Below are positions 3,860 to 46,925 of a stretch of DNA of 64,000 bases, piece after piece; position 1 is the first letter of the stretch, and the number at the start of each line of letters is the position of its first letter. The position numbers were made by a program, and so were the translations under genes. The notes under the pieces were generated by a model, which was given only the letters and a program-made list of their open reading frames with translations, made no database searches and had not been told where the DNA came from. The DNA comes from Candidatus Poribacteria bacterium (GTDB lineage: Bacteria; Poribacteria; WGA-4E; WGA-3G), in NCBI GenBank assembly GCA_965215265.1, contig OZ244048.1, forward strand, positions 1,376,001-1,440,000, read 5' to 3'.

Positions 3860-4283
3860 ATTTTTATATATCTCCGTACCGTCAAAGGTTATGCATTTGC
3901 TGGTTCGTGTGTAAATCTCGTTTTTTCGTATATCTTGGTAAAAAATTGGCCCTGCTTGCAGGGTGAATTCTTGTCCATCAACGCTACTTGCCAACTGCTA
4001 TTTACAAACCTTTACAAAACTCGCCAGAGCCGCTTTATGCTACGCCTAAGGAATCTCCGACGAGATTTTCACGGAAATTAACATAACATAGAGCCGTATC
4101 GGGCTTAACTATACAAAAACGTCAAAACACCAGACGGCTCAGACGAGAAAGGAATTGTCCCTGCAAGCAGGGATGAATTCTTCTACAAAACATAGAGCGT
4201 CATTGGGTGCCTGTAGACGAAAAAGCGAGATTTGTGCTTGCGTGTTCATTAAATCCATCGGTGACGTGCTGCCGTAGACGAAA
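3860..4283. repeat. Family-1 repeat cluster overlapping the fmt 3' end
   Basis: Same modules as above, plus small CCCTGC-AA/TT-GCAGGG hairpins. Confidence 0.8.
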
Positions 4284-5204
4284 GCCTGTTTGCAGTTGAT
4301 AACCGTTAATAAAATCGCGTGCATCCATAGCTTTTTTAGTGGCTGGTTGAAGTAGCAAAAGTTGAAGTGTGCCGTTCCCTGTTGCTATGAGCAGTTCTTG
4401 TTCAGTGCCAATGTGGAGCGTTCCTGGCGGCAGACCTAATGGCTGGGGTTTCGGCAGACAGCGTAGAATCTTCACCCGCAAATTCTGTGGAAAAAAGGTA
4501 TAAGCGCCGGGCCAAATGATGGTGCCGCGCACAAGATTGTGAATCTCCGTTGCCGCCTGCTGCCAGTTAATACGGCCACTCTCTTTTGTCAAACGTGGTG
4601 CGTATGTTGCAGCGGCGTGGTTCTGTGGAGATGCCGGAGGTGGCCGGTCGCTTGGCATTTTACGAAGCAGGCGTACCAATTGCTTAGCACCCAGGGCCGC
4701 TAAGGTATGCGTCAGCGTTGCAGCAGTCTCCTGGCTCCGAATCGGGATGTGCTCTTGGTAGATAATATCGCCAGTATCCTCACCGGCATCCAATAACATC
4801 AAAGTGATGCCGGTCTCCGTTTCGCCGTTAATCAACGTCCATTGAATGGGAGCAGCGCCTCGATATTTCGGCAGGAGTGATGGATGCAAGTTAATGGTGC
4901 CACACGGTGGAATATCCAACACTACCTGCGGAAGGAGTTGACCGAAGGCTGCAACGACGATGTTATCTGGTGCCAACCGTTCCAAGGTTTTGACAAAATC
5001 GGTGCGTCTCACCTTATCAGGTTGATAAACCGGCAGATTATGTCGCGCGGCCTCCACTTTCACGGGCGGCGGTGTGATTCGCTTTCCGCGGCCGCTGGGC
5101 CTGTCGGGTTGTGTGACAACTCCAATAAGTTCAAATTTGTGAGCAATGAGTGCTTGCAATGATGGTATAGCGAATTCACTGGTGCCCATAAATAGAATTT
5201 TCAT
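4200..5204 (-). CDS. fmt: Methionyl-tRNA formyltransferase
   Basis: MKILFMGTSEFA, VVTQPDRPSGRG and INLHPSLLPKYRGAAPIQW motifs; C-terminal tail is repeat-derived. Confidence 0.97.
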   Translation of the reverse strand: MKILFMGTSEFAIPSLQALIAHKFELIGVVTQPDRPSGRGKRITPPPVKVEAARHNLPVYQPDKVRRTDFVKTLERLAPDNIVVAAFGQLLPQVVLDIPPCGTINLHPSLLPKYRGAAPIQWTLINGETETGITLMLLDAGEDTGDIIYQEHIPIRSQETAATLTHTLAALGAKQLVRLLRKMPSDRPPPASPQNHAAATYAPRLTKESGRINWQQAATEIHNLVRGTIIWPGAYTFFPQNLRVKILRCLPKPQPLGLPPGTLHIGTEQELLIATGNGTLQLLLLQPATKKAMDARDFINGYQLQTGFRLRQHVTDGFNEHASTNLAFSSTGTQ

Positions 5205-5229
5205 ATAGTGCAGCCCCCTAACGCCTGAT

Positions 5230-5892
5230 CTAAAATCGGATTTGAATGAGCTGGAGGGTTAGACCGCCCAGCGGTTCGCTTCTAGACGTGTTCACTGTGT
5301 GCCTTAGACGGTTTTGTAAGGCTGGATAAAATCCGGTGTTTATTGAAGTTGCACGCGGATACGGCGAATGCCCATCCAGCAGGCGAGCGACGACACCTTC
5401 TGTTGGTTCTTCGTCTTCAATTGGAGGCGGTGGTTCCGGCTTTTGAATACGTGGTGTTGCAGTATCTACCGAGCGTGTGCGCCACCAATCCCATACGCCG
5501 ATGAAAATTGACAACGAAACGGCACCGATGCCAATAATACGATAATCCTGCGGTGTTAACTCTGGCGCGAATTGCTTTTCACTATACATTTTTATCCCGC
5601 GCACCGCGACGTAACTGTGAATCGAGGTAAACGGAAGGGCGCTTAAGGTGATAATCTCAAACCGGCGTAGTGCATTCTCCTGATATCCTTCGACAGGAGC
5701 CGGTGCTTGCTCCTCTGGAGGCATCGGCCGTTTTTGCGCGCTTGTATACGACACGAACCCAAAAATAAAAGCGGCGCTAAGTATGAATACCTGCTTTTTG
5801 TATACTGCAGCACAGCAACGCCTGATGTTTTGATAAAACTGTGTGAAATCTCGTCGCCCGCCTACCCAAATCCTCTCTCTGTTTAGATTCAT
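5230..5892 (-). CDS. Hypothetical exported/membrane protein; start uncertain because it lies in repeat DNA
   Basis: Signal-peptide-like KKQVFILSAAFIFGFVSYTSA, a TM segment and a Pro-rich linker; co-oriented with the operon. Confidence 0.6.
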   Translation of the reverse strand: MNLNRERIWVGGRRDFTQFYQNIRRCCAAVYKKQVFILSAAFIFGFVSYTSAQKRPMPPEEQAPAPVEGYQENALRRFEIITLSALPFTSIHSYVAVRGIKMYSEKQFAPELTPQDYRIIGIGAVSLSIFIGVWDWWRTRSVDTATPRIQKPEPPPPIEDEEPTEGVVARLLDGHSPYPRATSINTGFYPALQNRLRHTVNTSRSEPLGGLTLQLIQIRF

Positions 5893-6381
5893 TTTTTTGT
5901 ATATTTCAGTACCATCGGTGCTTAGGTTGTGTAAAATCAGATGTAAATCTCGCCAGAGCCTGCTTATGTTTATATCCATTTTTTATATCTCTCCGTACCA
6001 TCAACGCTTATGTTTTGATGGTGCGTTTTTTCGTATCTCTCCGTACCTAAAAAGTTTTTATTGTGTTAAATCCGATATAAATCTCGTCTTTTTGTATACT
6101 AGAGCCCTACAACGGCTGATGTATTGTCAATAACTGTGTAAATCTCGTTTTTTTTGTATGCAGGTGCCCGATGCCAGTTGCTGCAATTTAAATCTTGTGT
6201 ACATCTCGTCGCCCGCCCACCCAAATCCTTCTATGCTATGATTCGTAACATAAGCAGGCTCTGACGAGGTTTGTAAAGCATTTATCAAAACATCAGGCTT
6301 GATTGGGCTCCTGTAGACGAAAAGGCTCCTGTATACAAAAGAACATAACAACCGCCTTTGTTGTGCTGCACTATACGAAAT
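5795..6381. repeat. Family-1 repeat cluster
   Basis: Tandem left half-units (TTGTATA...AAATCTCG) ending in GTGCTGCACTATACGAAA. Confidence 0.85.
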
Positions 6382-6862
6382 TCCGGTTACGGAGTAGGTA
6401 AAGGACCAGCATACCTGCTCCGATACAGACAGAAACGTCAGCAAAGTTAAAGGTTGGCCAAAACAGTCTGCGGCTTTCTATGCCGAACTGCAGAAAATCA
6501 ATGACTTCTCCGATGCGTATCCGGTCGATGAAATTTCCAACCGCGCCGCCAAGTAGAAAGCCGAGGGCAATTTGCATCCAACGGCTCTGCCGAAATTGGA
6601 TTGAATATACCAGAATGAATCCTAAAGCAACAAGGGTGATCAAGATGAGCAAGGAGCGTTGCCCGGCTAATACCCCAAAAGCCGCGCCACTGTTCTTATC
6701 ATGGCGAAGATTGAAGAAACCGGGGATAACCGGTATAACTTCAGTGATATACGTAATGTGTTTTTCAACAAGCCACTTGCTCAGCCAATCTACGACGAAT
6801 ACCGGAATCGCTATTCCTATAAGCGTGAGTGAAACTTTCCAATTTTTCGTATTTTTTAGCAC
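6371..6862 (-). CDS. lspA: Lipoprotein signal peptidase II
   Basis: DWLSKW, NSGAAFG, GGAVGNFIDR, VIDF and PTFNFAD motifs. Confidence 0.97.
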   Translation of the reverse strand: MLKNTKNWKVSLTLIGIAIPVFVVDWLSKWLVEKHITYITEVIPVIPGFFNLRHDKNSGAAFGVLAGQRSLLILITLVALGFILVYSIQFRQSRWMQIALGFLLGGAVGNFIDRIRIGEVIDFLQFGIESRRLFWPTFNFADVSVCIGAGMLVLYLLRNRNFV

Positions 6863-6863
6863 G

Positions 6864-7090
6864 TTTTCGTATATCTCCGTTTTCTTGCATCTTTCAGCCC
6901 CATCAAGGGTTATATTTTTGATAATCCTTTACAAATCTCGTCGGAGGTTTTCGTATATCTCCGTACCGTCAACGCTTATGTCATGAATACTCGTGTGTTG
7001 GCAGGATAGGTATTCTTTTTCACTCCTTTTAGGAGTGAAAAGATTACGAAGTTGAGGGTGGCGAGATTTGTGCTAAGGTTATCATAAAAT
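6864..7090. repeat. Family-1 repeat with a nested family-2 module
   Basis: TTCGTATATCTCCGT termini, TGGCAGGATAGGTATTCTT, and hairpin CTTTTCACTCCT-TTT-AGGAGTGAAAAG. Confidence 0.8.
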
Positions 7091-7093
7091 CAA

Positions 7094-9787
7094 TCAGTGT
7101 TGTGCTTCCGTAGACGAAGCTTTGAGAGATTCCCATTCCGCTTTGGCGTTTTCTGCAGCAGTTGCTAGACATCCCCAGTTTGTCTGAAAGATGCTGTCTG
7201 GCAGGCTTGCAGCTGCTGGGACAACAATCAACTCGGCGGCATCTTCCAAAGCGCCATTTTTAGTGAGAGATTCAGAGAGCTGCTTATAAAACCGTTCAGC
7301 CAAGAAAGGTGTCAACGGTGCGAAACGTTGAAGCAGCAAAGTTCCTATTATGGATAGCGTCCGTCGTGCTGCATAGGAGGTTTCATGACTGCCCATAGGG
7401 ACGAATTGAAGATAAAACCGGAGATCTATGTCACAGAAATCAAAAAGCAGTTCCCACATTTTGTGAAAATTCCGATTCCGATAGGCTGCTTCTACCTCTT
7501 TCAAACGTGCCTTCGTTGCATCCAGGGCGAGTTCATCACGCTGGTTCTGCCCTATCTCGTCCGGTACGTTTGGTGCTTCGAATTCAGAAGTCTCCCCTGC
7601 CTTGTCTGTATCCTGACAAAGTGTGGAAACCTGCTCTAATAACTGCTGCAACCGTTCATATTTGGACCAGTACTTTTTGGCAAGCGTCCCAAGTTGCCTG
7701 CGTGTTACGTTCGGTGCAATTGCCAGGAGCCGACAGACATCAGCAGGATATTGTGCAATAAACGCATCTTGAATTTCAAAAGAGCGCTCTTTTTTTCCGT
7801 CTAAAATTGGCAGTGCTTGGAGGATAAGCTGCTTAAAGGGTTGGCTCTCTTTAATCGGTCGACTTCGGCTCAGTGCTGCGGAGATAACACTCACCTCCGA
7901 CAACCATTTTGAAAGGCCGGCTTGCGGGCCGAATATGACGCTAACAGGTCCCCCCAGGGGTTTCTTAAAATCGGAATTGTGAATCACCTGAAGCAGATTG
8001 CCGAAATGCGTATCAATCAATGTGGCTTCCTTCCGGAATTCCTTTGAATTGCACTTGGGACAGAAGGTATCGGTCGGTAAGAGTTCTTCTACACTCAAGC
8101 GAAACCAATATTCAGGCCCGCGGCGGATAGAGTTCCGGATAGCCAATAGTATATTTTTATTCGTAAGGGGTTCATCACACCCATCACAGAACAAAATAGG
8201 CAGCGGCATGCCCCACTGCTGCTGCGCGGAAACCTGCAAGTCAGTGAAATTGGCTGTGGTTTTTTGGACATCGACGAGAGCCTCTGGATGCGTGGGACAG
8301 TAATTCTCCCAATATTCTGGTGCGTTAATAAGTTCCGCTGTTGGCTGATTCTCGGATAGTGAGAAGACCCATTTTGAACAGGGGCGAAAAACGGCTAGCG
8401 TCTGGCACCGCTGGCAGTGGAGCCTCGGTCCTTCCGGAGCTGAGCTCTCATTATTAGTACCTGGACGAAATTTTAAGAGATAGCCGAACTGCTCTAACTC
8501 AGGAACGATAAATTTTTCAGCATCATACAGATTCAATCCACAGAGCGTGTCGCCTTCTTCGGTGAACTTGCCGGTCTCATCAAAAACAGACGTAGAACTT
8601 CTTTTTAAGAGCTGCGCAATATAGTAACTTAACGGGTTGTGCGCAGCATTTAGATGAATAACCCCGGCAAATCGTTCGTTTTGATGCGCATCGCCGCCAT
8701 ACCGATTCTCTTTCAGCATCCGGGCTGCTTCCTCGACGACGTTTTCGGGAATTGGAATAATCTTTAAAATTTTTGATGTAAAAAGTGGATGGGATACCGT
8801 GCATTTTGTGAGTTCAGAACTGCGTAGTTGCCTTAAGACTTCAAGAGTCTGGCCGGTTTTCGCCAAATGGTTTTGAAAAATCTGCAGCTGCGGTTCGGCA
8901 AAAAGCAGGTATTCACTTTCAAACCGAGTGAGGTAATAGGTAGCATTTTCACTAATTCCGAGTTCTGTCGTGCCTGCTATTTCCCAAATATGAGCGAACT
9001 CAAGACAAAAGAAGACATCGATGCCAAATTCCTCGAAACCGGTGCTGAAAGGAAATTTCACAAACGCAGGCAATGTGTCTGTTACACGATGTTCAGTTTT
9101 GCCAGTCTCAAGCGGTGCAGAGCACTTGGGACACCAAGCGCCAAGATGTGGCAGGTCTTGTAAATAGTGATACTCACGGAGCCGGCTGAGCAGTGGAATC
9201 AACTTTGACTCCTGCCGTGCGTCATGGTTTTTCAGTGCCAACTCCCAAGCTGCAAAACAGCCGAGTTGTTTTAATTTTTCTTGATTCGCTTCTAATTGCT
9301 TTATATAGAGTGTGTAGCACTGCTTCCGGAAGCGAAACATATCCAGCGGCGATTTAGAATTGGCTGCAGCTTCCGTTGCGATTTTATCTTCAATATAGGC
9401 AGGATATTTCTCCCAAGCAGGTATATATATCACTTCGCGTGCTTGCAGCATTTCTGCCTTAAGGAATATGTCTTGACAAATTTTTCTACAAAGCGTCCGG
9501 TGGTTGAGTGCATGAGTGGGAGCCGGCATTTCTCGAATAACATAAGTGACCGTATCGTTCTCTTGCGGGGTCTCATCAACTGGCGGTGTGTGTGCGGCAA
9601 TATCTACTGATGGGGAGGCTTTAGCACGTAGCACCGTCACCGATTGCAAAGGGTAAACTCCGGCGTTATCCCAGAGATTTAAAATTGATTTTTCTTCATG
9701 TCGACTGAGATATTCTGCAGACCTCGATGGAATTTTAGCGTTCCCGTTTTTACGTTGTACACTTTTGGTAGAAGCTCTTTTTTTCAT
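7094..9787 (-). CDS. Isoleucyl-tRNA synthetase-like protein, catalytically degenerate (no HIGH or KMSKS)
   Basis: Colinear with IleRS (WCPKCSAPLE, CTVSHPLF, QQQWGMPLPILFC, CPKCNSKEFRKEATLIDTHF, YPADVCRL, FAPLTPFLAE) and immediately upstream of lspA. Confidence 0.8.
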   Translation of the reverse strand: MKKRASTKSVQRKNGNAKIPSRSAEYLSRHEEKSILNLWDNAGVYPLQSVTVLRAKASPSVDIAAHTPPVDETPQENDTVTYVIREMPAPTHALNHRTLCRKICQDIFLKAEMLQAREVIYIPAWEKYPAYIEDKIATEAAANSKSPLDMFRFRKQCYTLYIKQLEANQEKLKQLGCFAAWELALKNHDARQESKLIPLLSRLREYHYLQDLPHLGAWCPKCSAPLETGKTEHRVTDTLPAFVKFPFSTGFEEFGIDVFFCLEFAHIWEIAGTTELGISENATYYLTRFESEYLLFAEPQLQIFQNHLAKTGQTLEVLRQLRSSELTKCTVSHPLFTSKILKIIPIPENVVEEAARMLKENRYGGDAHQNERFAGVIHLNAAHNPLSYYIAQLLKRSSTSVFDETGKFTEEGDTLCGLNLYDAEKFIVPELEQFGYLLKFRPGTNNESSAPEGPRLHCQRCQTLAVFRPCSKWVFSLSENQPTAELINAPEYWENYCPTHPEALVDVQKTTANFTDLQVSAQQQWGMPLPILFCDGCDEPLTNKNILLAIRNSIRRGPEYWFRLSVEELLPTDTFCPKCNSKEFRKEATLIDTHFGNLLQVIHNSDFKKPLGGPVSVIFGPQAGLSKWLSEVSVISAALSRSRPIKESQPFKQLILQALPILDGKKERSFEIQDAFIAQYPADVCRLLAIAPNVTRRQLGTLAKKYWSKYERLQQLLEQVSTLCQDTDKAGETSEFEAPNVPDEIGQNQRDELALDATKARLKEVEAAYRNRNFHKMWELLFDFCDIDLRFYLQFVPMGSHETSYAARRTLSIIGTLLLQRFAPLTPFLAERFYKQLSESLTKNGALEDAAELIVVPAAASLPDSIFQTNWGCLATAAENAKAEWESLKASSTEAQH

Positions 9788-9813
9788 ACACCTATTATCC
9801 TTAGATTTATCCG

Positions 9814-10065
9814 CTAAAGCATTCTTATCAAAAGGGATAGCAGCATTATGAGTATCCAGGGTGAAAAGTCAATCCCAAGATTCCGGGACACCGGGTCAAG
9901 CGCACGACGAATAGGATTTAGAACAGGATCCACGATAGAATTCGTCAAGGAATAAATTTGCCTGACAGTGGCGTTCCGAGTACCGAAGACAAAGTACGAA
10001 AGAATAACATTGGCCAAAACAACAAAAATATAAATTTCGAGTAGGTGTTTAAGTATATTAGCGAT
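9814..10065 (-). CDS. yggT: YggT family membrane protein; start codon unclear
   Basis: IYIFVVLANVILSYF...LTNSIVDPVLNPIRR...GIDFSPWI; lies in the yggS-proC-yggT cluster. Confidence 0.8.
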   Translation of the reverse strand: MANILKHLLEIYIFVVLANVILSYFVFGTRNATVRQIYSLTNSIVDPVLNPIRRALDPVSRNLGIDFSPWILIMLLSLLIRML

Positions 10066-10424
10066 TTTTTTGTATCCTTCAGTGCCATCAACGCTTATGA
10101 TTTTGATGGCTCGTGTATAAATCTCGTTTTTTTGTATATCTCCGTACCATCAACGTCTCTGTTTTGATGAGTCGTGTGTTGGCAGGATAGGTATCTTTCT
10201 CTGTCCATGAGAGAAGATAACCTTTTACCTGCCAATCTATAGATAAATCTCGCCAGAGCCTACTTAGGCATAGTCTTTTGAAGTCAAAGCATCAGAAGGC
10301 TCCGACGAGATTTGTAAAGTTATTAACATTGCAGCAGCCTTGTATCGGGCTCCTGTAGACGAAAGAACGAGATTTGTAAATGTTTTATCAAAACAAACGC
10401 TCTTATTGTGCTGCACTATACGAA
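10066..10424. repeat. Family-1 and family-2 repeat cluster
   Basis: Same modules as at the other loci. Confidence 0.85.
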
Positions 10425-11234
10425 TTATGTATTGCCAAGTTGTTTTGAACGTTCTGTAGCGGCAAGGATAGCTTCCGTAACGGTGGCACGTAATCGCCCT
10501 TTTTCGAGTGCATGGAGTCCAGCTGCGGTTGTTCCGCCGGGTGTCGTCACACGATTTTTAAGAACGGCTGGATGTTCATCCAGTTGGTCTAGCATCTGTG
10601 CGGTTCCTAAGACTGTATATGTTGCTAACTGTTGTGCAGCATTCCGGGGTAATCCGACCTGTACACCGGCATCTGCTAAAGCCTCTATAAAGAGTGCGAC
10701 GTAGGCGGGTCCGCTGCCGCTGACACCAGTTACAGCGTTGAGATGTTGTTCATCCATAACTAAAGTAGTGCCACAAGCGTTGAAGAGTTCCAAGGTTATC
10801 TGAATATGAGTTTCATCTGTGCAACTGCCTTTTGCGAGTACAGATACAGCGGAACGTGCGGCTGCGGCGATGTTCGGCATAACGCGAACGATAGGGGGCG
10901 TTGCTTCAAAGTAAGATTCAAGCGTTGCAGTTGAAACGCCAGCAGCGATACTAATTACCCATTGCGGTGATAAAAGGTTTTTCGCTACCTGAGGCAGAAT
11001 GTGTGGCACTGCTCCGGGCGGTACTGCACAGAGAATCGCGTCTGTGTTTTCGAGGAGTTCGGCGATATTTGATACGGCTTTCACATTCTGCTCCTCGACA
11101 AGTTGCGCGACAAGATTCTTATCAATATCCGTAACCCAAATCTGATTTTCAGGGAGCAGGGTGCCGGCGACATTTCTCACGATAACGCCGCCCATTTTTC
11201 CGATACCGATGACTCCCAATTTAAAGTTGTTCAT
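10425..11234 (-). CDS. proC: Pyrroline-5-carboxylate reductase
   Basis: IGIGKMG, ISIAAGV, RVMPN, VSGSGPAY and VTTPGGTT motifs. Confidence 0.97.
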   Translation of the reverse strand: MNNFKLGVIGIGKMGGVIVRNVAGTLLPENQIWVTDIDKNLVAQLVEEQNVKAVSNIAELLENTDAILCAVPPGAVPHILPQVAKNLLSPQWVISIAAGVSTATLESYFEATPPIVRVMPNIAAAARSAVSVLAKGSCTDETHIQITLELFNACGTTLVMDEQHLNAVTGVSGSGPAYVALFIEALADAGVQVGLPRNAAQQLATYTVLGTAQMLDQLDEHPAVLKNRVTTPGGTTAAGLHALEKGRLRATVTEAILAATERSKQLGNT

Positions 11235-11241
11235 CTTTTTG

Positions 11242-11741
11242 TTTTTTTGTATATCTCCGTACCATCAACGCTTATGCTTTTGCTAACTCGTGTGTAAATC
11301 TCGTCGGAGATTCCTTAGGTTATGTCTTTAAAAATCTAAACATCAGAACCCTCCCAGTGGGTGGCAGGTGGCGGGGTTCGGTTATCTTTTCACTCCTTGC
11401 AGGAGTGAAAAAGAACCTATAGGTGGCAGGTAAAAGGTAATCTTATCTCTCCTGAAAGGAGAGATAAAGAATACCTATCCTGCCATACCTTATCCCCGCC
11501 ATCTATAGATAAAAGGTAATCTTCTCTCATGGACAGAGAAAGAATACCTATCCTGCCACTGGCGAGATTTGTAAAGTTATTAACATTGCAGCAGCCTTGT
11601 ATCGGGCTGAAATATACGAAAGAACGAGATTTTCACAGATTTTTACAAAACATAGAGCGTCATTGGGCACCTATAGGCGAAAGAACGAGATTTGTGCTAA
11701 GGTTTTCATTAAATCCGTCTTTGTTCTGCTGCACTATACTA
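11242..11741. repeat. Family-1 unit containing three nested family-2 hairpin modules
   Basis: GTGGCAGGTAAAAGGTAATCTT-hairpin-AAGAATACCTATCCTGCCA modules lie between the AAATCTCG and CGAGATTT arms. Confidence 0.85.
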
Positions 11742-12488
11742 AAGAAAGATTGCCCGTCCGATTCTTACTAAGTTGGCGCCCTCTTCAATCGCTATTTCAA
11801 AGTCGTTTGTCATTCCCATAGAGAGGTATCGCATGATAACGTCAGGAAATTGCTGTGCTTCTATCTTCTCGGCGACGGTTCTCAACAAAGCGAAAGCCTT
11901 GCGATTTGTCGCTGGCGGAGCGTCTAACTGTCCGATTGTCATCAACCCAAGGATGCGCACGGCTGGATATCCTAAAGATTGTTCAATAAACCGGGGTACA
12001 TCTGCTGCATGTACACCATATTTACTTGCCTCACCGGTAGTATTTACCTGAATTAAAACATCTGTCTGCTGCCGGGGCGCTTCGGACCGACGTGCTATTT
12101 CTGCGAAAAGGCGCACACTGTCCACTGAATGAATCAGCGAAAACATCTGGAGTGCGGTTTTCACCTTATTGCGCTGTAAATGTCCGATAAGGTGCCAACG
12201 ACACGTTTTATCACCGACTGCATGGTACTTCTGTTGTGCTTCCTGCACCCGGTTTTCACCGATATTGGCAACCCCTGCAGCGATGGCTGTCTCGATCTCC
12301 ATGACGGAACGTCCTTTGGTGACTGCGACGAGCGCTATCGTATCAGGTGAGCGGCCGCTTCGTTCCGCGGCAGCTGCCAATCGTTCGTTCACTCTGGAAA
12401 GGTTTTCCGCAATTTTTTTTGCGTGCTCCGTGCAAGAAACCGGTTGTGTTGCTAAAATAGAATTGTTCGTATCTCTTAGTACCATCAA
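11739..12488 (-). CDS. yggS: PLP homeostasis protein YggS
   Basis: LVAVTK, GENRVQEA, WHLIGHLQRNK, LSMGMTNDF and VRIGRAIF motifs; exact start uncertain because it overlaps a repeat. Confidence 0.95.
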   Translation of the reverse strand: MMVLRDTNNSILATQPVSCTEHAKKIAENLSRVNERLAAAAERSGRSPDTIALVAVTKGRSVMEIETAIAAGVANIGENRVQEAQQKYHAVGDKTCRWHLIGHLQRNKVKTALQMFSLIHSVDSVRLFAEIARRSEAPRQQTDVLIQVNTTGEASKYGVHAADVPRFIEQSLGYPAVRILGLMTIGQLDAPPATNRKAFALLRTVAEKIEAQQFPDVIMRYLSMGMTNDFEIAIEEGANLVRIGRAIFL

Positions 12489-12615
12489 GATTATGTATTG
12501 TTAATAACTGTATAAATCTCGTAGTAGGTTCCTTAGGTATACCTAAACGGCTCAGACGAGGTTTGTGCTAAGGTTTACATCACATCAGGCGGTGGCGTGC
12601 TGCCATAGACGAAAA
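12466..12615. repeat. Family-1 repeat unit
   Basis: TTCGTATCTCTTAGTACCATCAAG...AAATCTCG...CGAGGTTT...GTGCTGCCATAGACGAAA. Confidence 0.8.
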
Positions 12616-12675
12616 ATTGGCGTCTCCTGTCCTCAGGGCACCCACCTTTCATCTATCACCTATTCTCCGTGGTGT

Positions 12676-13002
12676 CTATGCATTATCCTCGCTTGAAGGC
12701 TCAGTTGTTTCTGATGTCCACAACGTTTTTTGGATGTCATCTGGCGTTTGCTCATTGATAAGCCTTTGGCTGTTGAACGAAAACAGGATACCGATAACTG
12801 CCATGAGTACTGCCAAGCTAACGATACCTATGCCGACTGTCAGGGTATGTGTAGCTTCCGTGTAGATCTGTGTAACTTGAACTGCAGTTGTTGGTTCTGA
12901 TAAGGTTTTCTGATATTTTGCAGGATAGATGCCGCCCAGAACAATGAAAATGAGTCCTATGATACCTATAACTATTGAAAGAATTAGAAATAGAAACCTC
13001 AT
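12676..13002 (-). CDS. Hypothetical two-TM membrane protein
   Basis: Two hydrophobic helices; GAGG upstream. Confidence 0.6.
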   Translation of the reverse strand: MRFLFLILSIVIGIIGLIFIVLGGIYPAKYQKTLSEPTTAVQVTQIYTEATHTLTVGIGIVSLAVLMAVIGILFSFNSQRLINEQTPDDIQKTLWTSETTEPSSEDNA

Positions 13003-39716: not shown

Positions 39717-40015
39717 TCAGGCAAAAAAAAAGTTTGCCAAAAAGTGTTATTTTCTGATAGAATGTTTTCGTTGATTTTTTATTTCGGAAAAAAAGTTGAC
39801 AAACAAACGTTCGTTATGCGATAATGCAAAACAACTTTTGAGTGATGCAAAAAAAAGTTTGACAAAAAGTGTTGTTTTCGGCTAAAATGTGTTCGTCTCT
39901 TTTTTATTTCGAAAAAAAAGAGTTGACAAAAAAATGTTCATTGTGCGATAATGCAAAACAACTTTTGAGTCAGGCAAAAAAAAGTTTGCCAAAAAACGTT
40001 GTTTTCGGCTAAACT
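39717..40015 (+). promoter_or_regulatory. Tandem array of five sigma70-like promoters (about 63-bp period, about 126-bp higher-order repeat)
   Basis: TTGCCA/TTGACA at 39734, 39796, 39859, 39923 and 39986; each is preceded by an A-tract and followed 18 bp later by TAGAAT, GATAAT, TAAAAT, GATAAT or TAAACT. Confidence 0.7.
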
Positions 40016-40029
40016 GAAAGATACGAATT

Positions 40030-40187
40030 TTTGTATATCTCGGTACTATACCGGTTTATGTTATCTTAAATCGGATGTAAATCTCGCCAGAGCCATCTTA
40101 TGTTATGAATCAAAACATCGGAAAACTTCGGGCGAGATTTGTAAAAAGAGACTCATTAAATCTGTCGGTGCTGAAATATACGAAAAA
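40030..40187. repeat. Family-1 repeat unit
   Basis: TTTGTATATCTCGGTAC...AAATCTCGCC...GGCGAGATTT...GTGCTGAAATATACGAAAA. Confidence 0.85.
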
Positions 40188-40760
40188 CCTCGAATTCAGA
40201 CAGGGAAAAATTGAACAGATGAAACACCGAGAGTCCGTGTACCCCATAAGCAGAACGAGCTGCCCCGTGGTGCGGGGTTGTAGTTTTGGCACGAACGCGT
40301 GCGTACGCGGTGCTGTCGTGTGTTTTAAGTCCCTGTTAAGACGATTGACCCCCCCCCTTACTTCACATAAATTAACCCTTTTATTAACTCAGGCAGCATC
40401 TACATCTACCTTCGTTGCTGCTTTCTTATGCCTGCACGCCTCCCGTCTCGGACGGTGGGTGCCGTTGCGGGCTTTTTTTCTTGTGCGTGCGGTGTTCAGT
40501 TGCGGAGCCCCCGGGCTTCTGTATGCGGACCTGCCCGCCACGAACCCAGTTGGCTTATGCCAACGGTGCCGGTGTGTCAGTCGCCTCGGCACCCTACCTG
40601 ATAACACAAGTGCACTCACTCCTTAGAAAGAATAGAGAGTTAATTGTTGAAGTGGCGGAATCGAAGGCCGGTAACAAGGCATTAGCTACTGCAAATGAGA
40701 CACTGACAGCTGAAGTGACTGCAGCACCTGTAATGAATGACTAATAAAAGCGTGGCCGTA

Positions 40761-42032
40761 ATGTTTAGAATCTTATTTTTATTGCTGGCTAGTTCGCTGG
40801 CGGTTTGCCTGCTCAGCTGCGGATTTATTGAAGATGATGCTGAAGAAGAGGAGGCTCCCGCCGCGATCGAAAGCGTGACACCTTCCGGTGGTGAGCTTTC
40901 GGAAGATGGAAGCATCATAGTAACCTTTGACACCGATCCGGGCGATGTCAGCACCAGTGAGGGGTCTGTCTTCGGTGTGGGTAGGACTCGGGCCATCTCA
41001 GGTCCTTTTAGCCCCGGTGCGCTGGACTTGCGGCTCAACTGGTCAAATGGTGCAGGCAGCCTGACTTTGATTTACCAGGTCAAAGCAGCAAAAGCCAAGC
41101 CGCCGCCAGAGGGCATGGTGCTCATCCCCGGTGGTGCATTCCAGATGGGCAGCAACGATGCCGATGCCGGGAATGACGAGCAGCCTGTGCACACGGTGCA
41201 TGTGGACGCGTTCTACATGGATAAGCACGAGGTGACAAATCTGGAATACAAGCGGTTTGTGCTGGCGAACCCGCAGTGGCAAAAGACGCGCATCCCACGG
41301 GTGCTCCATAATGGTAATTACCTAAACGATTGGAGCGGTAATAACTATCCAGTGGGTAAGGCGAACCATCCTGTGGTATATGTGTCGTGGTATGGTGCGA
41401 TGGCATATTCCGCGTGGGCAGGTAAGCGTCTTCCGACGGAGGCAGAGTGGGAGAAAGCGGCACGGGGTGGGAAGTCAGGGTTAAAGTATCCGTGGGGGAA
41501 TACAATCTCCTCTGGGCATGCGAACTACGTTAGTAATGTAGGCGGTACAACGGCTGTGGGGAGTTATGCGTCGAACGGGTATGGGCTGTATGATATGACA
41601 GGGAACGTGTGGGAGTGGTGCCTGGATGCGTATGATTCGGATTTCTATTCAGAGTCTCCGTCTCGGAATCCGCTGAGTGACGTGAATACCATATCGAATC
41701 TGGATCTGATTGTAAAAAACTTTATGCATATTAAGTCTTCTCGCGTGTTGCGTGGCGGGAGTTGGTACGTTTTTACACGGCCCCTGCGTGTCGCCAATCG
41801 CCTCTGGAATTCTCCAGCGAGCACGTACAACGACTTCGGGTTCCGGTGCGCGAGGGCTGTCACGCCTCAAATCTTCACTCCTTGTCTCAAAAACACAAGG
41901 CATAGCCGGCGCAAAACCCGTGCGGCCTCTAAATGCCGCTCGCGACTTGGCATCACTATTGGTTGCGTACTGGTGAAGTTTCACCTAGTTTATATCGTTC
42001 ATAAAATTTTCTTCACTAAGTTTACAGTATAA
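40761..42032 (+). CDS. DGR target 1: lipoprotein with Ig-like domain and FGE-sulfatase/C-type lectin domain; stop codon lost (54-aa extension)
   Basis: LLSC lipobox; GMVLIPGGAFQMG, RLPTEAEWEKAARGG, GLYDMTGNVWEW and RVLRGGSW...GFRC motifs; its 3' end aligns to the TR. Confidence 0.9.
   Translation: MFRILFLLLASSLAVCLLSCGFIEDDAEEEEAPAAIESVTPSGGELSEDGSIIVTFDTDPGDVSTSEGSVFGVGRTRAISGPFSPGALDLRLNWSNGAGSLTLIYQVKAAKAKPPPEGMVLIPGGAFQMGSNDADAGNDEQPVHTVHVDAFYMDKHEVTNLEYKRFVLANPQWQKTRIPRVLHNGNYLNDWSGNNYPVGKANHPVVYVSWYGAMAYSAWAGKRLPTEAEWEKAARGGKSGLKYPWGNTISSGHANYVSNVGGTTAVGSYASNGYGLYDMTGNVWEWCLDAYDSDFYSESPSRNPLSDVNTISNLDLIVKNFMHIKSSRVLRGGSWYVFTRPLRVANRLWNSPASTYNDFGFRCARAVTPQIFTPCLKNTRHSRRKTRAASKCRSRLGITIGCVLVKFHLVYIVHKIFFTKFTV
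41742..41855 (+). repeat. DGR variable repeat VR1
   Basis: 114-bp gapless match to the TR; most differences are at TR adenines, plus 7 non-A differences. Confidence 0.85.
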
Positions 42033-42065
42033 CTTAATTAATTTAGAGTATAAAAGGAAAATAAA

Positions 42066-43196
42066 ATGTTTAGAATCTTATTTTTATTGATGGCCACCTC
42101 GCTGGCGGTTGGCCTGCTCAGCTGCGGATTTATTGAAGACGATGCTGAAGAAGAAGAGGCTCCCGCCGCGTTCCAAAGCGCGACACCGTCCGGTGGTGAG
42201 CTTGCGGAAGATGGGAGCATCACAGTAACCTTTGACACCGATCCGGGCGATGTCAGCACCAGTGAGGGGTCTGTTTCCGGTGTGGGTAGGACTCGGAGCA
42301 TCTCAGGTCCTTTTAGCCGCGGTGCGCTGAACTTGCGGCTCAACTGGGCAAATGGTGCAGGCAGCCTGACTTTGACTTACCAGGTCAAAGCGAAAGTAGA
42401 AACCGCAGTTGAGAAGGAGAGAGAGGTGCCTGAAGGAATGGTGCTCATCCCCGGTGGTGCATTCCGGATGGGCAGCAACGATGCCGAGGCCGATAATGAT
42501 GAGCAGCCTGTGCATACGGTGCATGTGGACGCGTTCTACATGGACACGCATGAGGTGACGAATCTGGAATACAAGCGTTTTGTGCTGGCGAACCCCCAAT
42601 GGCAAAAGACGCGTATCCCACGGGCGCTCCATAATGGTAATTACCTAAAACATTGGAGTGGTAATAACTATCCTTCGGGTAAAGCGAACCATCCTGTGAC
42701 GTATGTGTCGTGGTATGGTGCGATGGCGTATGCTGCGTGGGCAGGTAAACGTCTTCCGACGGAGGCGGAGTGGGAGAAAGCGGCGCGGGGTGGGAAGTCA
42801 GGGTTAAAGTATCCGTGGGGGAATACAATCTCCTCTGCGCGTGCGAACTATGGTGGTAATGTAGGGGACACGCGTCCTGTGGGGAGTTATGCGTCGAACG
42901 GGTATGGGCTGTATGACATGGCCGGGAACGTGTGGGAGTGGTGTCTTGATGCGTATGATTCGGATTTCTATTTTAATTCGCCGTCTCGTAATCCGCTGAG
43001 CGACGTGAACACCATATCGAATCTGGATCTGATTGTAAATGACTATACACATGTTAAGTCTCTTCGCGTGTTGCGCGGCGGTGGCTGGTACGATCTTACA
43101 CGCTACCTGCGCGCCGCTAATCGCCTCTGGGATTCACCAACGATCACGAACTTCAACAGCTTCGGGTTCCGGTGTGCGAGGGCTGTTACTCCTTAA
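42066..43196 (+). CDS. DGR target 2: lipoprotein with Ig-like and FGE-sulfatase/C-type lectin domains
   Basis: Close paralogue of target 1 with an LLSC lipobox and a VR at the C-terminus. Confidence 0.93.
   Translation: MFRILFLLMATSLAVGLLSCGFIEDDAEEEEAPAAFQSATPSGGELAEDGSITVTFDTDPGDVSTSEGSVSGVGRTRSISGPFSRGALNLRLNWANGAGSLTLTYQVKAKVETAVEKEREVPEGMVLIPGGAFRMGSNDAEADNDEQPVHTVHVDAFYMDTHEVTNLEYKRFVLANPQWQKTRIPRALHNGNYLKHWSGNNYPSGKANHPVTYVSWYGAMAYAAWAGKRLPTEAEWEKAARGGKSGLKYPWGNTISSARANYGGNVGDTRPVGSYASNGYGLYDMAGNVWEWCLDAYDSDFYFNSPSRNPLSDVNTISNLDLIVNDYTHVKSLRVLRGGGWYDLTRYLRAANRLWDSPTITNFNSFGFRCARAVTP
43065..43181 (+). repeat. DGR variable repeat VR2
   Basis: All substitutions versus the TR (about 19) fall at TR adenines; one extra codon in the AAC run. 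Confidence 0.95.
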
Positions 43197-43217
43197 ATCT
43201 TTACTCCTTTACCCCTT

Positions 43218-43237
43218 CCGATCTGCGTGCAGATCGG
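43218..43237 (+). promoter_or_regulatory. Hairpin/cruciform downstream of VR2 (candidate DGR homing signal)
   Basis: Perfect inverted repeat CCGATCTG-CGTG-CAGATCGG about 20 bp after the stop codon, the position of the known DGR target-recognition hairpin. Confidence 0.7.
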
Positions 43238-43470
43238 GTCGATACAATTTTTTAACTATGAGTTAAAAATCAGTTAGAAATAGGGTAAAATATTAACTAT
43301 ATGTTAATTATCTGCTTATTTTTTGCTTGGTGCGTGCTGTAACCGGTGCGTTTTTGTGGCAAGTCCCGAATTTTATCCGGCTCGGTTTTTTTTTCGGGGT
43401 GTATCCGTGGCTGTACCGATATTAGGTTTAGCAATTCGGGTGGCCGGTGTGAGAATGTGGATTGGGTAGC

Positions 43471-43818
43471 ATGCCAACATCTACGACTACGATGAAAGCG
43501 GTTCCGAAATTATACGATGTGGTAATGTGGCTATTAGGCTGTGTGGAGAAATTCCCGCGTTCTCATAAGTTTACGCTGGGTGACAGAGTGGTGACTCTTG
43601 CGCTGGATATATTGGAGTTGCTGATAGAAGCGACCTATACGCGGAATAGGCTTCCGCTGCTGCGTCAAGCGAACGTGCAGCTGGAGAAACTCCGTTATCT
43701 GATTCGGTTGTGCCACGACTTCAAACTGATTTCAACGAAGCAGTACAACTATATTTCGGGTGAAATCAACGAAGTAGGGCAGCGAATCGGCGGGTGGATT
43801 AAGAGTCAATCTGCCTGA
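43471..43818 (+). CDS. avd: DGR accessory variability determinant Avd (four-helix bundle)
   Basis: KLYDVVMWL..VEKFPRSHKFTLGDR...LEKLRYLIRL...EVGQRIGGWIK; directly upstream of the RT. Confidence 0.93.
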   Translation: MPTSTTTMKAVPKLYDVVMWLLGCVEKFPRSHKFTLGDRVVTLALDILELLIEATYTRNRLPLLRQANVQLEKLRYLIRLCHDFKLISTKQYNYISGEINEVGQRIGGWIKSQSA

Positions 43819-43885
43819 GGCTGAAAAATCCTTGTTTTCCCTGCTGGTTCTCTTTATGAGAGGCATCTTATAGTTCAAGTTGACG

Positions 43886-44944
43886 ATGAAAACGTATAAT
43901 AGGCTGTTTGAACAGATCTGCTCGTTTGAGAATCTGCTAGTCGCTGCGCGTAAAGCGCAGCGTGGGAAGCGTTTTCAAGACGAAGTGGCGCGTTTCAACT
44001 TTCACTTGGAGCGTGAGCTATACCGCTTGCAGGCGGAGCTGCAGACGCAAAGCTATGAGCCGGGTGGCTATCATGAGTTTCATATCTACGAGCCGAAGTT
44101 GCGTAAGATTAGCGCAGCGCCTTATCGTGACAGGGTTGTCCATCACGCGTTGTGCAACGTTGTAGAGCCGCTTTTCGACCGGACGTTCATTTTTGATTCC
44201 TACGCGTGTCGGAAAGGGAAGGGTACGCATAAAGCCGTGGACCGGTTTACAGGATTCAGCCGCAAGACTGAGTATGTGCTGAAGTGTGACATTAGAAAGT
44301 ATTTTCCGTCAATCGACCACGAGATTCTGAAGACGCTGTTTCGCCGGAAGATTCGGGATGTAAAAACCTTGTGGTTGATGGATGTGATTGTTGATAGTAG
44401 TAACCGTCAGGAAAATGTGATAGGCTACTTTGACGGGGATACGCTATTGACACCGCTGTGGCGGCGGCGCGGCATTCCGATCGGGAATCTGACGAGTCAG
44501 TTTTTCGCGAATATCTATCTGAACGGTTTTGACCATTTTGTGAAAGAGCAGCTACAGTGTCGCTACTACATCCGTTATGTGGACGATTTCGTGGTGCTTG
44601 ACAGGGACAAGTCGCGGCTGCATGAAGTCAAAGTGGAGATGGTCTCCTACTTGGCGCGGCTGCGGCTGCAGTTACACCCGCACAAGTGCCAGGTTTTTCC
44701 GGTGAAAAGCGGCACGGATTTTTTGGGGTATCAGGTGTTCCCGACACATCGTAGGCTCCGGGCATCCTCTGTGACGCGTGCACGGCGGCGTTTGCGGCGG
44801 CTGCAAAGGGATTACCGCGTAGGTAAGATTTCACAAGAGCAGGTGACTCATTCGGTGCAAAGTTGGCTTGGCCATATTCAGCATGCGGACACGTATGGAC
44901 TGCGTCGGGCAATCTTTTCGGATATCCGTTTTCAGCGTTCATGA
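43886..44944 (+). CDS. DGR reverse transcriptase
   Basis: [48 protein letters not shown] (DGR-type SQ), YIRYVDDF and DFLGY motifs. Confidence 0.96.
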
Positions 44945-45031
44945 AGTGAAGCGTCAAAGCGTTTCAGAGTTTAAAAAGCGTGTCGCTTCTCAGCACGAGC
45001 TGGAGAAGCCCACGGGGTCTCAAGCCGAGCA

Positions 45032-45148
45032 TCTCGCGTGTTGCGCGGCGGTAGCTGGAACAATAATACACGAAACCTGCGCGCCGCTAATCGCAACAGG
45101 AATACACCAACGAACACGAACAACAACAACGGGTTCCGGTGTGCGAAG
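45032..45148 (+). ncRNA. DGR template repeat (TR)
   Basis: AAC/AAT-rich copy of both VRs: CGCGTGTTGCGCGGCGGTAGCTGGAACAATAAT...AACAACAACAACGGGTTCCGGTGTGCG. Confidence 0.95.
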
Positions 45149-45270
45149 ACCCTTTCCGAGAGGTTAGCATCTTTCGGGGTTGCCAGAGTTGGTGTGCCTC
45201 CGAGGTAGGTGAGTCACATCAAGTGTGCATCGCTAAAGAGTCCAAGGCTTGATACCTGTGTTCATCTCTC

Positions 45271-45350
45271 TGTGAGATGTGCCAAAGATAAAACCCGGGG
45301 TGTGATGGTGAGTAGGCAGTGTGCCGAATGTTATCACACCTCTTTCTCTT
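45271..45350 (+). repeat. 80-bp hairpin element, copy 1 (downstream of the TR)
   Basis: GGTGTGATGGTG-AGTAGGCAGTGTGCCGAA-TGTTATCACACC; near-identical copies at 46711 and 48183. Confidence 0.85.
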
Positions 45351-45465
45351 TTTTCTCTGCCTGATTTCTCTTTGCTTGACAATGATTCCCTGATGTGTTA
45401 TTATAAAGACAGAGTCGTTTTGAGAAGGGAAGCCCTTGACAACTGATACGTTTTAGGAGTATAAT

Positions 45466-46590
45466 ATGCAGAAAGGGGACATCCACGACTTTTTGTCCGA
45501 GATGTCTGTTTCGAACTTTTCCGATCGGAGCATACGCCGCTTATTAGAAAACAAGGAAAACGTCCGGGGCTTGCTAGAAATCGTTGCGGCAGAACTCGCC
45601 GCGTTGATTGATTTTGCGCATCTGGTTCCAATGAATAGGAGCCTGCTGCCCGCCACTCTTCGAGAACAAGAGGCAGACATTGTGTATCGGGTGCCCTTCA
45701 AAAGTGATGGTGATGAGGGTGCGGCAGAGCTGCTCATCTATCTGCTGATTGAACATCAATCGACGGTGGATGCGACGATGGGATTTCGTGTGCTTTTCTA
45801 CATGATGCTGATTTGGGACGCAGAGCGGCGGCGGTGGGCGGCCGAGACGGTGCCGAGAAGAGAGCGTGTATTGCCGCCGATTCTGCCTGTGGTGTTTTAC
45901 ACGGGGGAGCGGCGGTGGGAGAAGCCTCTGACACTTGAGGCGCTGATGAATCTGCCCGCCGCACTCTCTAGATTCGTTCCGAGATTTGACATCCTGTTTC
46001 TGAATCTGACAGGCACAGACAAGGCGACGCTGACAGAGGCGGCGCATCCATTCGGGTGGCTGATGAGAGTGCTGCAACAAGGAGATTCGGACAAAGCGTC
46101 TATAAGCCGGGCGTTACGAGAGACTTTGACGCAGTTGGCGACACTTGATGCGGCGGATTCAGGGCAGCGGCGGGAAGCGATAATGTATCTGGTATCGCTG
46201 ATTGTGCATCGGCGCCCAAAGGAAGAACAAGAAGAGTTGATAGAGTTGATAGACCGGCATACGAGTGATATGGAGGTAGCACCGATGGCAGAGACAATGG
46301 CCGAATTCCTCTTCGAACGAGGCATAGCACAAGGGATGGAACGAGGCATAGCACAAGGGATTGAACGAGGCATTGAACGAGGCATAGAACGAGGGAGAGA
46401 ACAAGGGGCGTGCCAGAATGCTATCAAAAATATAACCGCCGTCCTCAATGCGCGATTCCCTCATTGTGACATACACACTGCCACGCAGAAACTCGAAACG
46501 CTTTCTAACCTTGAACACCTCGAGCACCTGCTGCTGACAGCCGTCAAAGCCGATAGCTTTCAAGCATTCCTACAGGCATTAGAACTATAG
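45466..46590 (+). CDS. Rpn family recombination-promoting nuclease / Transposase_31-like (PD-(D/E)XK), copy 1
   Basis: EADIVYRV, LLIEHQST, LPPILPVVFYTG and a C-terminal (ERGI)n coil. Confidence 0.9.
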   Translation: MQKGDIHDFLSEMSVSNFSDRSIRRLLENKENVRGLLEIVAAELAALIDFAHLVPMNRSLLPATLREQEADIVYRVPFKSDGDEGAAELLIYLLIEHQSTVDATMGFRVLFYMMLIWDAERRRWAAETVPRRERVLPPILPVVFYTGERRWEKPLTLEALMNLPAALSRFVPRFDILFLNLTGTDKATLTEAAHPFGWLMRVLQQGDSDKASISRALRETLTQLATLDAADSGQRREAIMYLVSLIVHRRPKEEQEELIELIDRHTSDMEVAPMAETMAEFLFERGIAQGMERGIAQGIERGIERGIERGREQGACQNAIKNITAVLNARFPHCDIHTATQKLETLSNLEHLEHLLLTAVKADSFQAFLQALEL

Positions 46591-46710
46591 AAACGCACGC
46601 GCCGAACGCCCTGGCCGGCACCGGGCTGCTCTTGTCGGGGTGTCAGGTAGGAACCCTACCGTTATTATACCCTCTGACAAGCGGAGCATGGTAGGTTGCG
46701 TACTATACCG

Positions 46711-46790
46711 TGTGAGATGAACCAAAGATAAAAGCAGAGGTGTGATGGTGAGTCGGCCGTGTGCCGAATGCTATCACACCTCTTTTTCTT
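46711..46790 (+). repeat. 80-bp hairpin element, copy 2
   Basis: GAGGTGTGATGGTGAGTCGGCCGTGTGCCGAATGCTATCACACCTC. Confidence 0.85.
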
Positions 46791-46925
46791 TCAGGCGATG
46801 CAGATTTCTCTGCCTGATTTGTTTATCTCTGCTTGACAATGATTCACGGATGTGTTATTATAAATAAAAAGTAGGAGTTTTGAGAAGGGAAGCACTTGAC
46901 AACTGATACGTTTTAGGAGTATAAT

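Follow-up and report, generated by a model that had tools for sequence, protein, structure and literature searches.

A few paralogues of aminoacyl-tRNA synthetases, HisZ and LeuRS-I among them, no longer charge tRNA and offer a rare view of essential enzymes taking on new roles. A further candidate is described here from a 64,000-nucleotide stretch of the genome of Candidatus Poribacteria bacterium (NCBI GenBank assembly GCA_965215265.1, contig OZ244048.1, positions 1,376,001 to 1,440,000 of the forward strand; hereafter the window, with coordinates counted from its first letter). On its reverse strand, at 7094..9787, lies an open reading frame (ORF) of 897 amino acids (aa) that is related to the type-1 isoleucyl-tRNA synthetase (IleRS1), sits upstream of lspA, and has neither the HIGH nor the KMSKS signature. 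This gene and its product, referred to below as the relic, are read here as a selected pseudo-synthetase, neither a decaying gene nor a second IleRS.

One such paralogue is HisZ, a relative of HisRS that regulates the ATP phosphoribosyltransferase HisG and has no adenylation activity (PMC9437257). Like the relic as we read it, HisZ is a bacterial synthetase paralogue without adenylation that has a non-translational role beside an active synthetase (PMC9437257), and it is unlike the relic in being a class II protein that has lost domains, with HisG as its partner and histidine as its ligand, whereas the relic is a full-length protein of class Ia. Another example is found in LeuRS-I of the Sulfolobaceae and LeuRS2 of the Halobacteria, which, like the relic as we read it, are second class Ia copies with little or no aminoacylation and an altered CP1 and C-terminal domain, kept alongside the enzyme that does the charging; LeuRS-I nevertheless binds tRNA-Leu and forms leucyl-adenylate (PMC9437257), while the relic is without the ATP-binding signatures and an adenylate is not to be expected of it. 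A third is SbzA of SB-203208 biosynthesis, an IleRS homologue that, as is proposed for the relic, has been recruited beyond tRNA charging for translation (PMC6331615). SbzA differs in its 37.6% identity to T. thermophilus IleRS (1JZQ), its slightly modified HIGH and KMSKS, its weak charging activity and its place in a biosynthetic cluster (PMC6331615); the relic has no near-intact HIGH or KMSKS, and its neighbours are yggS, proC, yggT, lspA and fmt.

The nearest described protein, by sequence and by predicted structure, is IleRS1 itself (E. coli IleS, P. megaterium 8c9e, S. aureus 1ffy), which shares with the relic a CP1-split Rossmann fold followed by a helical domain of the anticodon-binding type, as well as a chromosomal place upstream of lspA. 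Unlike IleRS1, the relic lacks HIGH, KMSKS, GWDCHG, the editing motifs and the C-terminal zinc domain, and half of the near-invariant positions are lost. As for genomes that hold both types of the enzyme, ileS1 and the mupirocin-resistant kind, ileS2, coexist in Bacillaceae as they do here, with the difference that both Bacillaceae enzymes are active and ileS1 appears mandatory (10.1101/2022.02.09.479832), whereas in the present genome the sole active enzyme is IleRS2 and the ileS1 descendant is predicted to be dead. The coexistence of genomic ileS types has been called unique to Bacillaceae, a mupirocin producer apart (10.1101/2022.02.09.479832), a statement that the relic family contradicts. 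Non-canonical signatures have also been stated not to occur in any natural IleRS1 found (10.1101/2023.01.31.526100); the relic contradicts this only as a presumably inactive descendant from which the signature is missing altogether. Our literature search returned no report of a signature-less IleRS1-derived protein or of synthetase paralogues in Poribacteria, with the limit that supplementary trees and tables of IleRS phylogenies may include some, and the words 'Poribacteria', 'paralog' and 'truncated' do not occur in the main text of a 2026 paper on the evolution of the IleRS C-terminus (PMC13752280). Pseudo-synthetases are a known kind of protein, to which the relic adds an old, selected case spread across the phylum as sampled.

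Homology to IleRS1 and loss of the catalytic signatures

The relic frame runs from an ATG to a stop codon at 7094-7096 with zero internal stops, and its product passes the Pfam gathering thresholds for the class I tRNA ligase superfamily, with 46.6 bits for tRNA-synt_1 (PF00133; cut-off 22.7) and 34.8 bits for Anticodon_1 (PF08264; cut-off 25.1). The NCBIfam ileS model TIGR00392 matches residues 97-840 with an E-value of 3.4e-42 and 144.6 bits, which is below its cut-off of 621.4 and so leaves the protein outside the equivalog. In a sequence search of the PDB the best matches are IleRS1 chains (8c9f, E 1.5e-22; 1ffy, E 1e-17), those to IleRS2 being far weaker (8c9d, E 7e-6; 1ile, E 4.8e-4), and identity to solved IleRS is 15-17%. 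An AlphaFold2 model of the protein, built on an alignment of 20 orthologues, has a mean predicted local distance difference test score (pLDDT) of 79.4 and a predicted template modelling score (pTM) of 0.79. When it is compared with the PDB by Foldseek, the top hit is IleRS1 8c9e (E 5.7e-33, template modelling (TM) score 0.52, 16% identity), and the top seven hits are full-length IleRS1 chains, after which come IleRS2, ValRS and LeuRS; the modest TM-score would be expected of a flexible multi-domain protein, and the model is not one to support fine structural claims. An earlier note, made from the letters of this stretch alone, had described an intact 897-aa ORF colinear with IleRS and had proposed a structural comparison, and the ORF list, the Pfam, NCBIfam and PDB matches and the Foldseek result agree with that description.

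The motifs were read from an alignment of E. coli IleS with the window protein and 19 orthologues. The PPYANG..HIGH region falls on aa 86-99 (9491..9532), which read EMPAPTHALNHRTL; PPYANG..HIGH of E. coli aligns with MPAPTH-ALNHRT, the HIGH positions being NHRT, and E86 and P88 are the sole residues of the region that are invariant in the 20-sequence alignment. GWDCHGLP aligns with AWEKYPAY (aa 124-131) and WCISRQR with LQVSAQQ (aa 517-523), while of the KMSKS loop there is left the short and variable GKKERSFE (aa 664-671; 7775..7798), a segment with deletions of 5-9 residues in which a KMSKS-like string occurs in 0/20 aligned copies and 0/9 from other orders, and where the ratio of nonsynonymous to synonymous substitution rates (dN/dS) is 0.19-0.43. 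All four strings had been quoted in the earlier note, and each proved to be present and to align with the E. coli IleRS motif to which it had been assigned. Beyond what the earlier note had covered, the editing motifs are degenerate as well: TTTPWT aligns with EFAHIWE, and GTGxVHxAPxHGxDD with FAGVIHLNAAHNPLSY; the conserved Asp of HGxDD, which we take to be an editing-site residue, is gone in the window's family and retained in some other families. Across 29 aligned orthologues, HIGH (including any HxGH), KMSKS, GWDCHG and TTTPWT are present in none, and neither is an exact WCISRQR, close variants of which survive in some copies from other orders. The HIGH and KMSKS positions vary among orthologues, so nothing is conserved there, and with the catalytic signatures lost, adenylation of isoleucine and editing are not to be expected.

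The extent of this loss can be gauged against a reference of 81 canonical IleRS1 rows, which are the 98 rows with both HIGH and KMSKS after filtering to 850-1000 aa. In this reference 130 columns are at least 90% conserved, and 65 of them are held by fewer than 20% of the 29 relics, while 28, mostly W, G and P, are held by at least 80%. The lost set includes PPYANG, H65, G67, D96, H98, G99, the Thr-rich editing motif (T241, T242, T243 and T246, lost in more than 80% of relics), GxDQxRG and S604-K605-S606, together with R656, N657, R660, S724, K732, D733, Y736, R745 and four C-terminal Cys. The residues of GWDCHG and GxDQxRGWF presumably form the amino-acid pocket, and the group at E. coli 656-745 presumably lies in the anticodon-binding domain. 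Columns that are conserved only in relics and differ from canonical IleRS1 number eight (L109, F178, R191, G250, E252, G255, P469, R551); most are hydrophobic or Gly/Pro, the polar ones being R191, E252 and R551.

What has been kept includes four CxxC pairs, C219/C222 (9122-9133, within CP1), C458/C461 (8405-8416), C534/C537 (8177-8188) and C576/C579 (8051-8062), which may be zinc sites. Across the 20 orthologues six of these Cys (C219, C458, C534, C537, C576, C579) never vary, and the other two (C222, C461) are conserved in at least 90%. Opposite the C-terminal zinc region of E. coli (880-938), 17 orthologues out of 20 have a gap and the remaining three a Cys-less tail of 4-7 residues, and E. 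coli C901, C904, C921 and C924 face gaps in at least 80-90% of the 29 relics. Both the retention of the four motifs and the absence of the C-terminal zinc finger had been read correctly from the window alone.

A canonical IleRS2 elsewhere in the genome

The earlier note had supposed that the ancestral ileS was displaced by another IleRS, and had named a second, canonical ileS as the thing to look for; such a gene is present, and the relic is not the only ileS-like gene of its genome. The genome is complete, as one contig of 4,833,177 bases, with exactly one ileS above the cut-off, matching TIGR00392 at 2010651-2013158 of the reverse strand with 962.5 bits. Its 1047-aa product is of the IleRS2 type, with 1034 bits to P. 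megaterium IleRS2 vs 334-353 bits to IleRS1 chains in the PDB, and it carries KMSKS, TTTPWT and GWDTHG, with GVHH in place of HxGH. The GVHH signature is found in all 15 Poribacteria IleRS2 read. A swap of this type has been linked to mupirocin hyper-resistance in IleRS2, which tolerates it, while GXHH put into IleRS1 abolished activity (10.1101/2023.01.31.526100). The genome has 48 tRNAs, including one tRNA-Ile(GAU) and three with CAU, and no extra orphan tRNA is evident.

An above-cut-off ileS was also detected in 39/41 relatives and in 5/5 distant members of the phylum; the two relatives for which the search, limited to 1e-60, gave no match are drafts with a completeness of 99% and 86%. The frames are all of 1045-1194 aa, with one exception cut by a contig end, and none is IleRS1; canonical IleRS1 was found in no Poribacteria genome searched. 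These IleRS2 fall into two subtypes, one of about 1045-1118 aa with KMSKS and 950-998 bits to TIGR00392, and another of 1119-1194 aa that scores 540-560 bits, carries xMHKS and GPITANNPMGVHH and resembles a Pirellulaceae enzyme. Both have GVHH, and the subtype is independent of whether the relic is present or absent.

Selection on the protein sequence

Selection was estimated by the Nei-Gojobori method for eight genome pairs, of which seven could be computed for the relic and one was saturated. The relic has a dN/dS of 0.137-0.251, and the same pairs give 0.047-0.093 for ileS2, 0.125-0.157 for proC, 0.057-0.161 for lspA and 0.12-0.42 for yggT; the pair with the least saturation (dS 0.39) gives 0.176 for the relic and 0.067 for ileS2. 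The suggestion of the earlier note that an open frame after so much divergence points to selection is in keeping with these ratios and with the intact orthologues, and neither disrupted orthologues nor a dN/dS near 1 was seen.

Regional ratios, from five pairs and with boundaries approximated from the alignment and the model, show where the constraint lies. They are 0.02-0.16 in the N half of the former Rossmann fold (aa 81-205; 9173..9547), 0.06-0.13 in the stretch that holds the CP1 return, CP2/CP3 and the Rossmann C half (aa 451-660; 7808..8437), and 0.09-0.24 in the CP1 editing-domain homologue with its degenerate editing motifs (aa 206-450; 8438..9172). The KMSKS/SC region gives 0.19-0.43, the N terminus (aa 1-80) 0.20-0.44, and the helical homologue of the anticodon-binding domain (aa 746-845; 7253..7552; Anticodon_1 match at aa 754-842) 0.18-0.63. 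Column conservation agrees with dN/dS, being 0.63 in the Rossmann N half vs a protein mean of 0.54, and 64 columns are invariant in the 20 orthologues at 22-64% identity to the window protein. The tightest constraint is therefore on the old catalytic (Rossmann/CP) core, though its catalytic residues are gone. Since selection acts on the protein sequence itself and not just on the openness of the frame, an ordinary pseudogene is excluded and pure operon polarity is unlikely. The relic combines lost catalytic residues, an active counterpart in the genome and purifying selection, which are the marks of a pseudo-enzyme, its inactivity being predicted from sequence.

The first 30 residues (9698..9787) form a polybasic tail with a net charge of +8, modelled as disordered (pLDDT below 50 at residues 1-23). 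This segment has a net charge of +4 to +13 in 13/14 same-family orthologues and of -4 to +4 in six from other families of the order, and the whole-protein isoelectric point is 5.7-8.7 in same-family relics vs 4.8-5.4 in IleRS2.

Distribution and origin

The names that related proteins carry at their source are Candidatus Poribacteria, 'class I tRNA ligase family protein' and 'hypothetical protein'. With an E-value limit of 0.001, a query with the single protein matched 37/41 relatives, in some of them by no more than weak cross-matches to other synthetases, and all 24 same-family genomes have an orthologue (41-64% identity, frames of 822-957 aa, no internal stop). When a 20-sequence profile was run against 151 genomes drawn across Poribacteria at E up to 1e-40, it matched 135 of them, namely 99/99 in the window's own family (f1), 22/26 in a second (f3, with genus g8 at 0/4), 4/4 in a third (f4), 0/10 in a fourth (f2), 8/8 in other orders of the class and 1/3 in other classes. 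Nine weak matches from other orders or classes were fetched, and all are open frames of 708-931 aa without HIGH or KMSKS and with lspA directly downstream. In sum, the relic is an open frame of 708-944 aa at the same locus in 32/32 loci read.

The order yggS-proC-yggT-relic-lspA-orf249-fmt is kept in 23/23 loci of the order, as far as each stretch reaches, and the relic lies between proC and lspA in 9/9 loci from other orders and classes where the contig reaches, one contig showing no proC. In E. coli, too, ileS and lspA are adjacent, as the fetched locus shows. The claim of an ancestral ileS-lspA position is upheld by this synteny, and the conserved place beside lspA, as in E. coli, argues independently of any tree for descent from the resident ileS1 rather than for an import.

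A profile search against 1.84 billion representatives returned the relic family first, more distant degenerate sequences next and canonical IleRS1 after them. A FastTree phylogeny of 156 rows was made from the full-length matches of at least 700 aa among the 150 best, to which E. coli IleS and 11 orthologues were added, with four Poribacteria IleRS2 as outgroup. In this tree the relics group into a single clade of 29 rows, none with HIGH or KMSKS, inside the IleRS1 side, and the exact sister group of the clade is not established. The relic is thus closer to IleRS1 than to IleRS2 by sequence, predicted structure and tree. Relics of other Poribacteria orders and classes share the kind of degenerate motifs seen in outer members of the clade.

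Some IleRS1-like proteins without HIGH and/or KMSKS also stand outside the Poribacteria clade (P0186, P0170, P0237, P0157, P0142, P0162, P0175, P0153, P0211, P0179), and the length of P0153, P0211 and P0179 (1266-1469 aa) suggests fusions. For the degenerate P0186, named Armatimonadota by its source, the nearest relatives are near-canonical and no conserved second family was seen. A search with the singleton P0150, whose identity to ordinary IleRS1 is about 43%, was uninformative. A search of genome contigs with a 3-row alignment gave six loci, one cut by a contig end and five holding full-length frames whose class I signatures are canonical or nearly so (Desantisbacteria, Omnitrophota, Gammaproteobacteria, Binataceae and Pirellulaceae); these loci are uninformative on relics outside Poribacteria.

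The lspA locus

Neighbouring genes are named from Pfam matches, and all lie on the reverse strand. Downstream of the relic is lspA, for lipoprotein signal peptidase II (6371..6862; Peptidase_A8, 138 bits), which adjoins the relic in 32/32 loci, the relic stop overlapping the lspA start in many. In the window the two genes are parted by a spacer of 231 nt (6863..7093) filled with dispersed short repeat copies (families D1-D5, D7, D9 and D11), a feature specific to the window genome among those read; in most others the genes overlap or abut. Beyond lspA is orf249 (5230..5979), a conserved 249-aa ORF with no Pfam family that is found in 34/35 loci read, relic-less loci included. Upstream, 26 nt from the relic start, is a yggT-family gene (9814..10017; YGGT, 48.9 bits), followed by proC for pyrroline-5-carboxylate reductase (10425..11234; P5CR_dimer, 139.5 bits, and synteny) and a gene for a yggS-like PLP-binding protein (11739..12488; Ala_racemase_N, 64.8 bits, and synteny). 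The name YggS is our reading of a 249-aa single-domain protein with a predicted Ala_racemase_N fold. The YGGT ORF has 67 aa and its Pfam match begins at profile position 13, the same-genus orthologue having 87 aa; either its start is miscalled or the gene has been shortened beside the repeat-filled gap. The genes around the relic (lspA, yggT, orf249) come down from ordinary ileS loci, and this neighbourhood points to no specific partner.

Repeats fill every intergenic gap of the operon (5780-6370, 6863-7093, 10018-10424, 11235-11738), for example as a 39-nt unit in eight copies, and a 26-nt repeat core has 284 copies in the genome at no more than four mismatches, 11 of them in the window. An Rfam search of window positions 4000-13000 with an E-value limit of 0.1 found nothing (0 matches), and hence no T-box or other known leader. 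Four sequencing runs, all from one study, contain the stretch, and among those listed none is of RNA. Elsewhere in the window, at 40001-48000, GC content (0.49-0.52) and a strongly positive GC skew (0.09-0.17) are both above the rest of the window.

What the relic may do

These findings make it probable that the relic is a pseudo-synthetase under selection that no longer aminoacylates and that acts through binding, whether to regulate, to serve as a scaffold or to bind nucleic acid. The ancestor of Poribacteria would have had a resident type-1 IleRS gene, and a type-2 IleRS with GVHH would then have taken over the charging of tRNA-Ile, after which aminoacylation and editing could be lost from the older enzyme. 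Selection would since have retained the relic as a pseudo-enzyme that still folds, has its full length and conserves four CxxC pairs, and whose remodelled core may bind rather than catalyse. In the window's family the gain of a polybasic N-terminal tail may add unspecific affinity for RNA or another polyanion, for which Lys/Arg-rich tails would be suited. That RNA in particular is the ligand is a tentative suggestion, and rather doubtful even if the relic does work by binding.

Several observations weigh against this account. No partner or ligand of the relic was identified, and its binding role is one that we infer. The tRNA-binding role that the earlier note had put forward gains no direct support. 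The loss of the C-terminal zinc domain and of the E. coli 656-745 residues would disfavour tRNA-Ile as a ligand, and the basic tail, being confined to one family, cannot explain retention across the phylum. The eight relic-specific columns are a thin basis for a new specific site. By dN/dS the relic evolves 2-3 times faster than ileS2, ratios that are rough, with dS near or above 1 in several pairs and one pair not computable. The FastTree phylogeny is without bootstrap, its branches are long and its composition is skewed, and attraction among the degenerate rows may have shaped the relic clade. The relic is also absent by profile from the genera g7 (0/1), g8 (0/4) and g10 (0/9), where, in one genome read from each, it has been lost cleanly from the same block, leaving a yggT-lspA gap of 111 nt in g7, 547 nt in g8 and 179 nt in g10. 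Clean loss from a conserved block in three genera shows that the relic is dispensable in some lineages, and this, with the lspA overlap, describes a gene that is embedded in an operon and can be done without by some of its bearers.

A different possibility, with a low but real chance of being right, is that the remodelled core has acquired new catalysis, either as an aminoacyl-tRNA-dependent transferase like SbzA or with other ligase or hydrolase chemistry. It is in the old catalytic core that constraint is highest (dN/dS 0.02-0.16), the polar residues R191, E252 and R551 are conserved in relics only, E86 is invariant, and there is a precedent in SbzA, which moves isoleucine from Ile-tRNA to altemicidin (PMC6331615; PMC9437257). 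SbzA, however, has kept its two signatures in slightly modified form and works from a biosynthetic cluster, whereas the relic has neither motif and stands in a housekeeping block; in addition, the near-invariant E. coli 656-745 residues and the C-terminal domain are lost, and the relic-specific columns, mostly hydrophobic or Gly/Pro, are so few that this explanation is ranked second to the binding pseudo-synthetase.

No likelier, in our judgement, is that the dead IleRS1 acts as a HisZ-like sensor or regulator, its core binding a metabolite, uncharged tRNA or a protein partner and so coupling isoleucine or translation status to another process. The HisRS-like domain of GCN2 offers a parallel for this. 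Two other roles were considered and set aside, that of an antibiotic decoy acting as a sink for a mupirocin-like inhibitor, for which the residues of the ATP/Ile pocket are lost (we assume in part how such an inhibitor binds), and that of trans-editing, for which the window's family no longer has the Thr-rich motif or the editing Asp.

It is improbable that the protein is functionless, the frame being kept for lspA operon polarity or translational coupling, or being in slow decay. The overlapping or abutting relic stop and lspA start in most loci, the deletion from three genera that retain the neighbours, and a dN/dS about 2-3 times that of ileS2 would all suit such a view. Coupling, though, requires only an open frame and no particular sequence. 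Against it stand a dN/dS of 0.14-0.25 for the whole protein and 0.02-0.16 for its core, 64 invariant columns among orthologues of 22-64% identity, a frame that spans 708-944 aa in 32/32 loci, a confident fold prediction and, in the window genome, the 231-nt repeat-filled spacer that already parts the relic from lspA. Least credible of all is a cryptic IleRS, or a synthetase for another amino acid, with unrecognisable motifs, for although the architecture and fold are full-length and IleRS2 tolerates a swapped GXHH, both ATP-binding signatures, the GWDCHG and GxDQxRGWF residues and the KMSKS loop itself are gone or deleted and these positions vary among orthologues, GXHH in IleRS1 abolishes activity and no natural non-canonical IleRS1 was reported (10.1101/2023.01.31.526100), every genome with an above-cut-off match has a canonical IleRS2, and the tRNA set (one tRNA-Ile(GAU), three CAU tRNAs) has no evident orphan to be served.

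Implications

For annotation, the rule that follows is that a Poribacteria 'class I tRNA ligase family protein' beside lspA is not an IleRS. The relic family documents the end state of the replacement of IleRS1 by an IleRS2 of the GVHH type, and the relic would be the first IleRS1-derived case of a non-charging paralogue to be described. Should the dead enzyme prove to be a sensor or regulator, this would be the first time that a regulatory role is described for a full-length pseudo-synthetase of class Ia, and one case of a wider pattern in which IleRS1 is reused once a resistant IleRS2 takes over.

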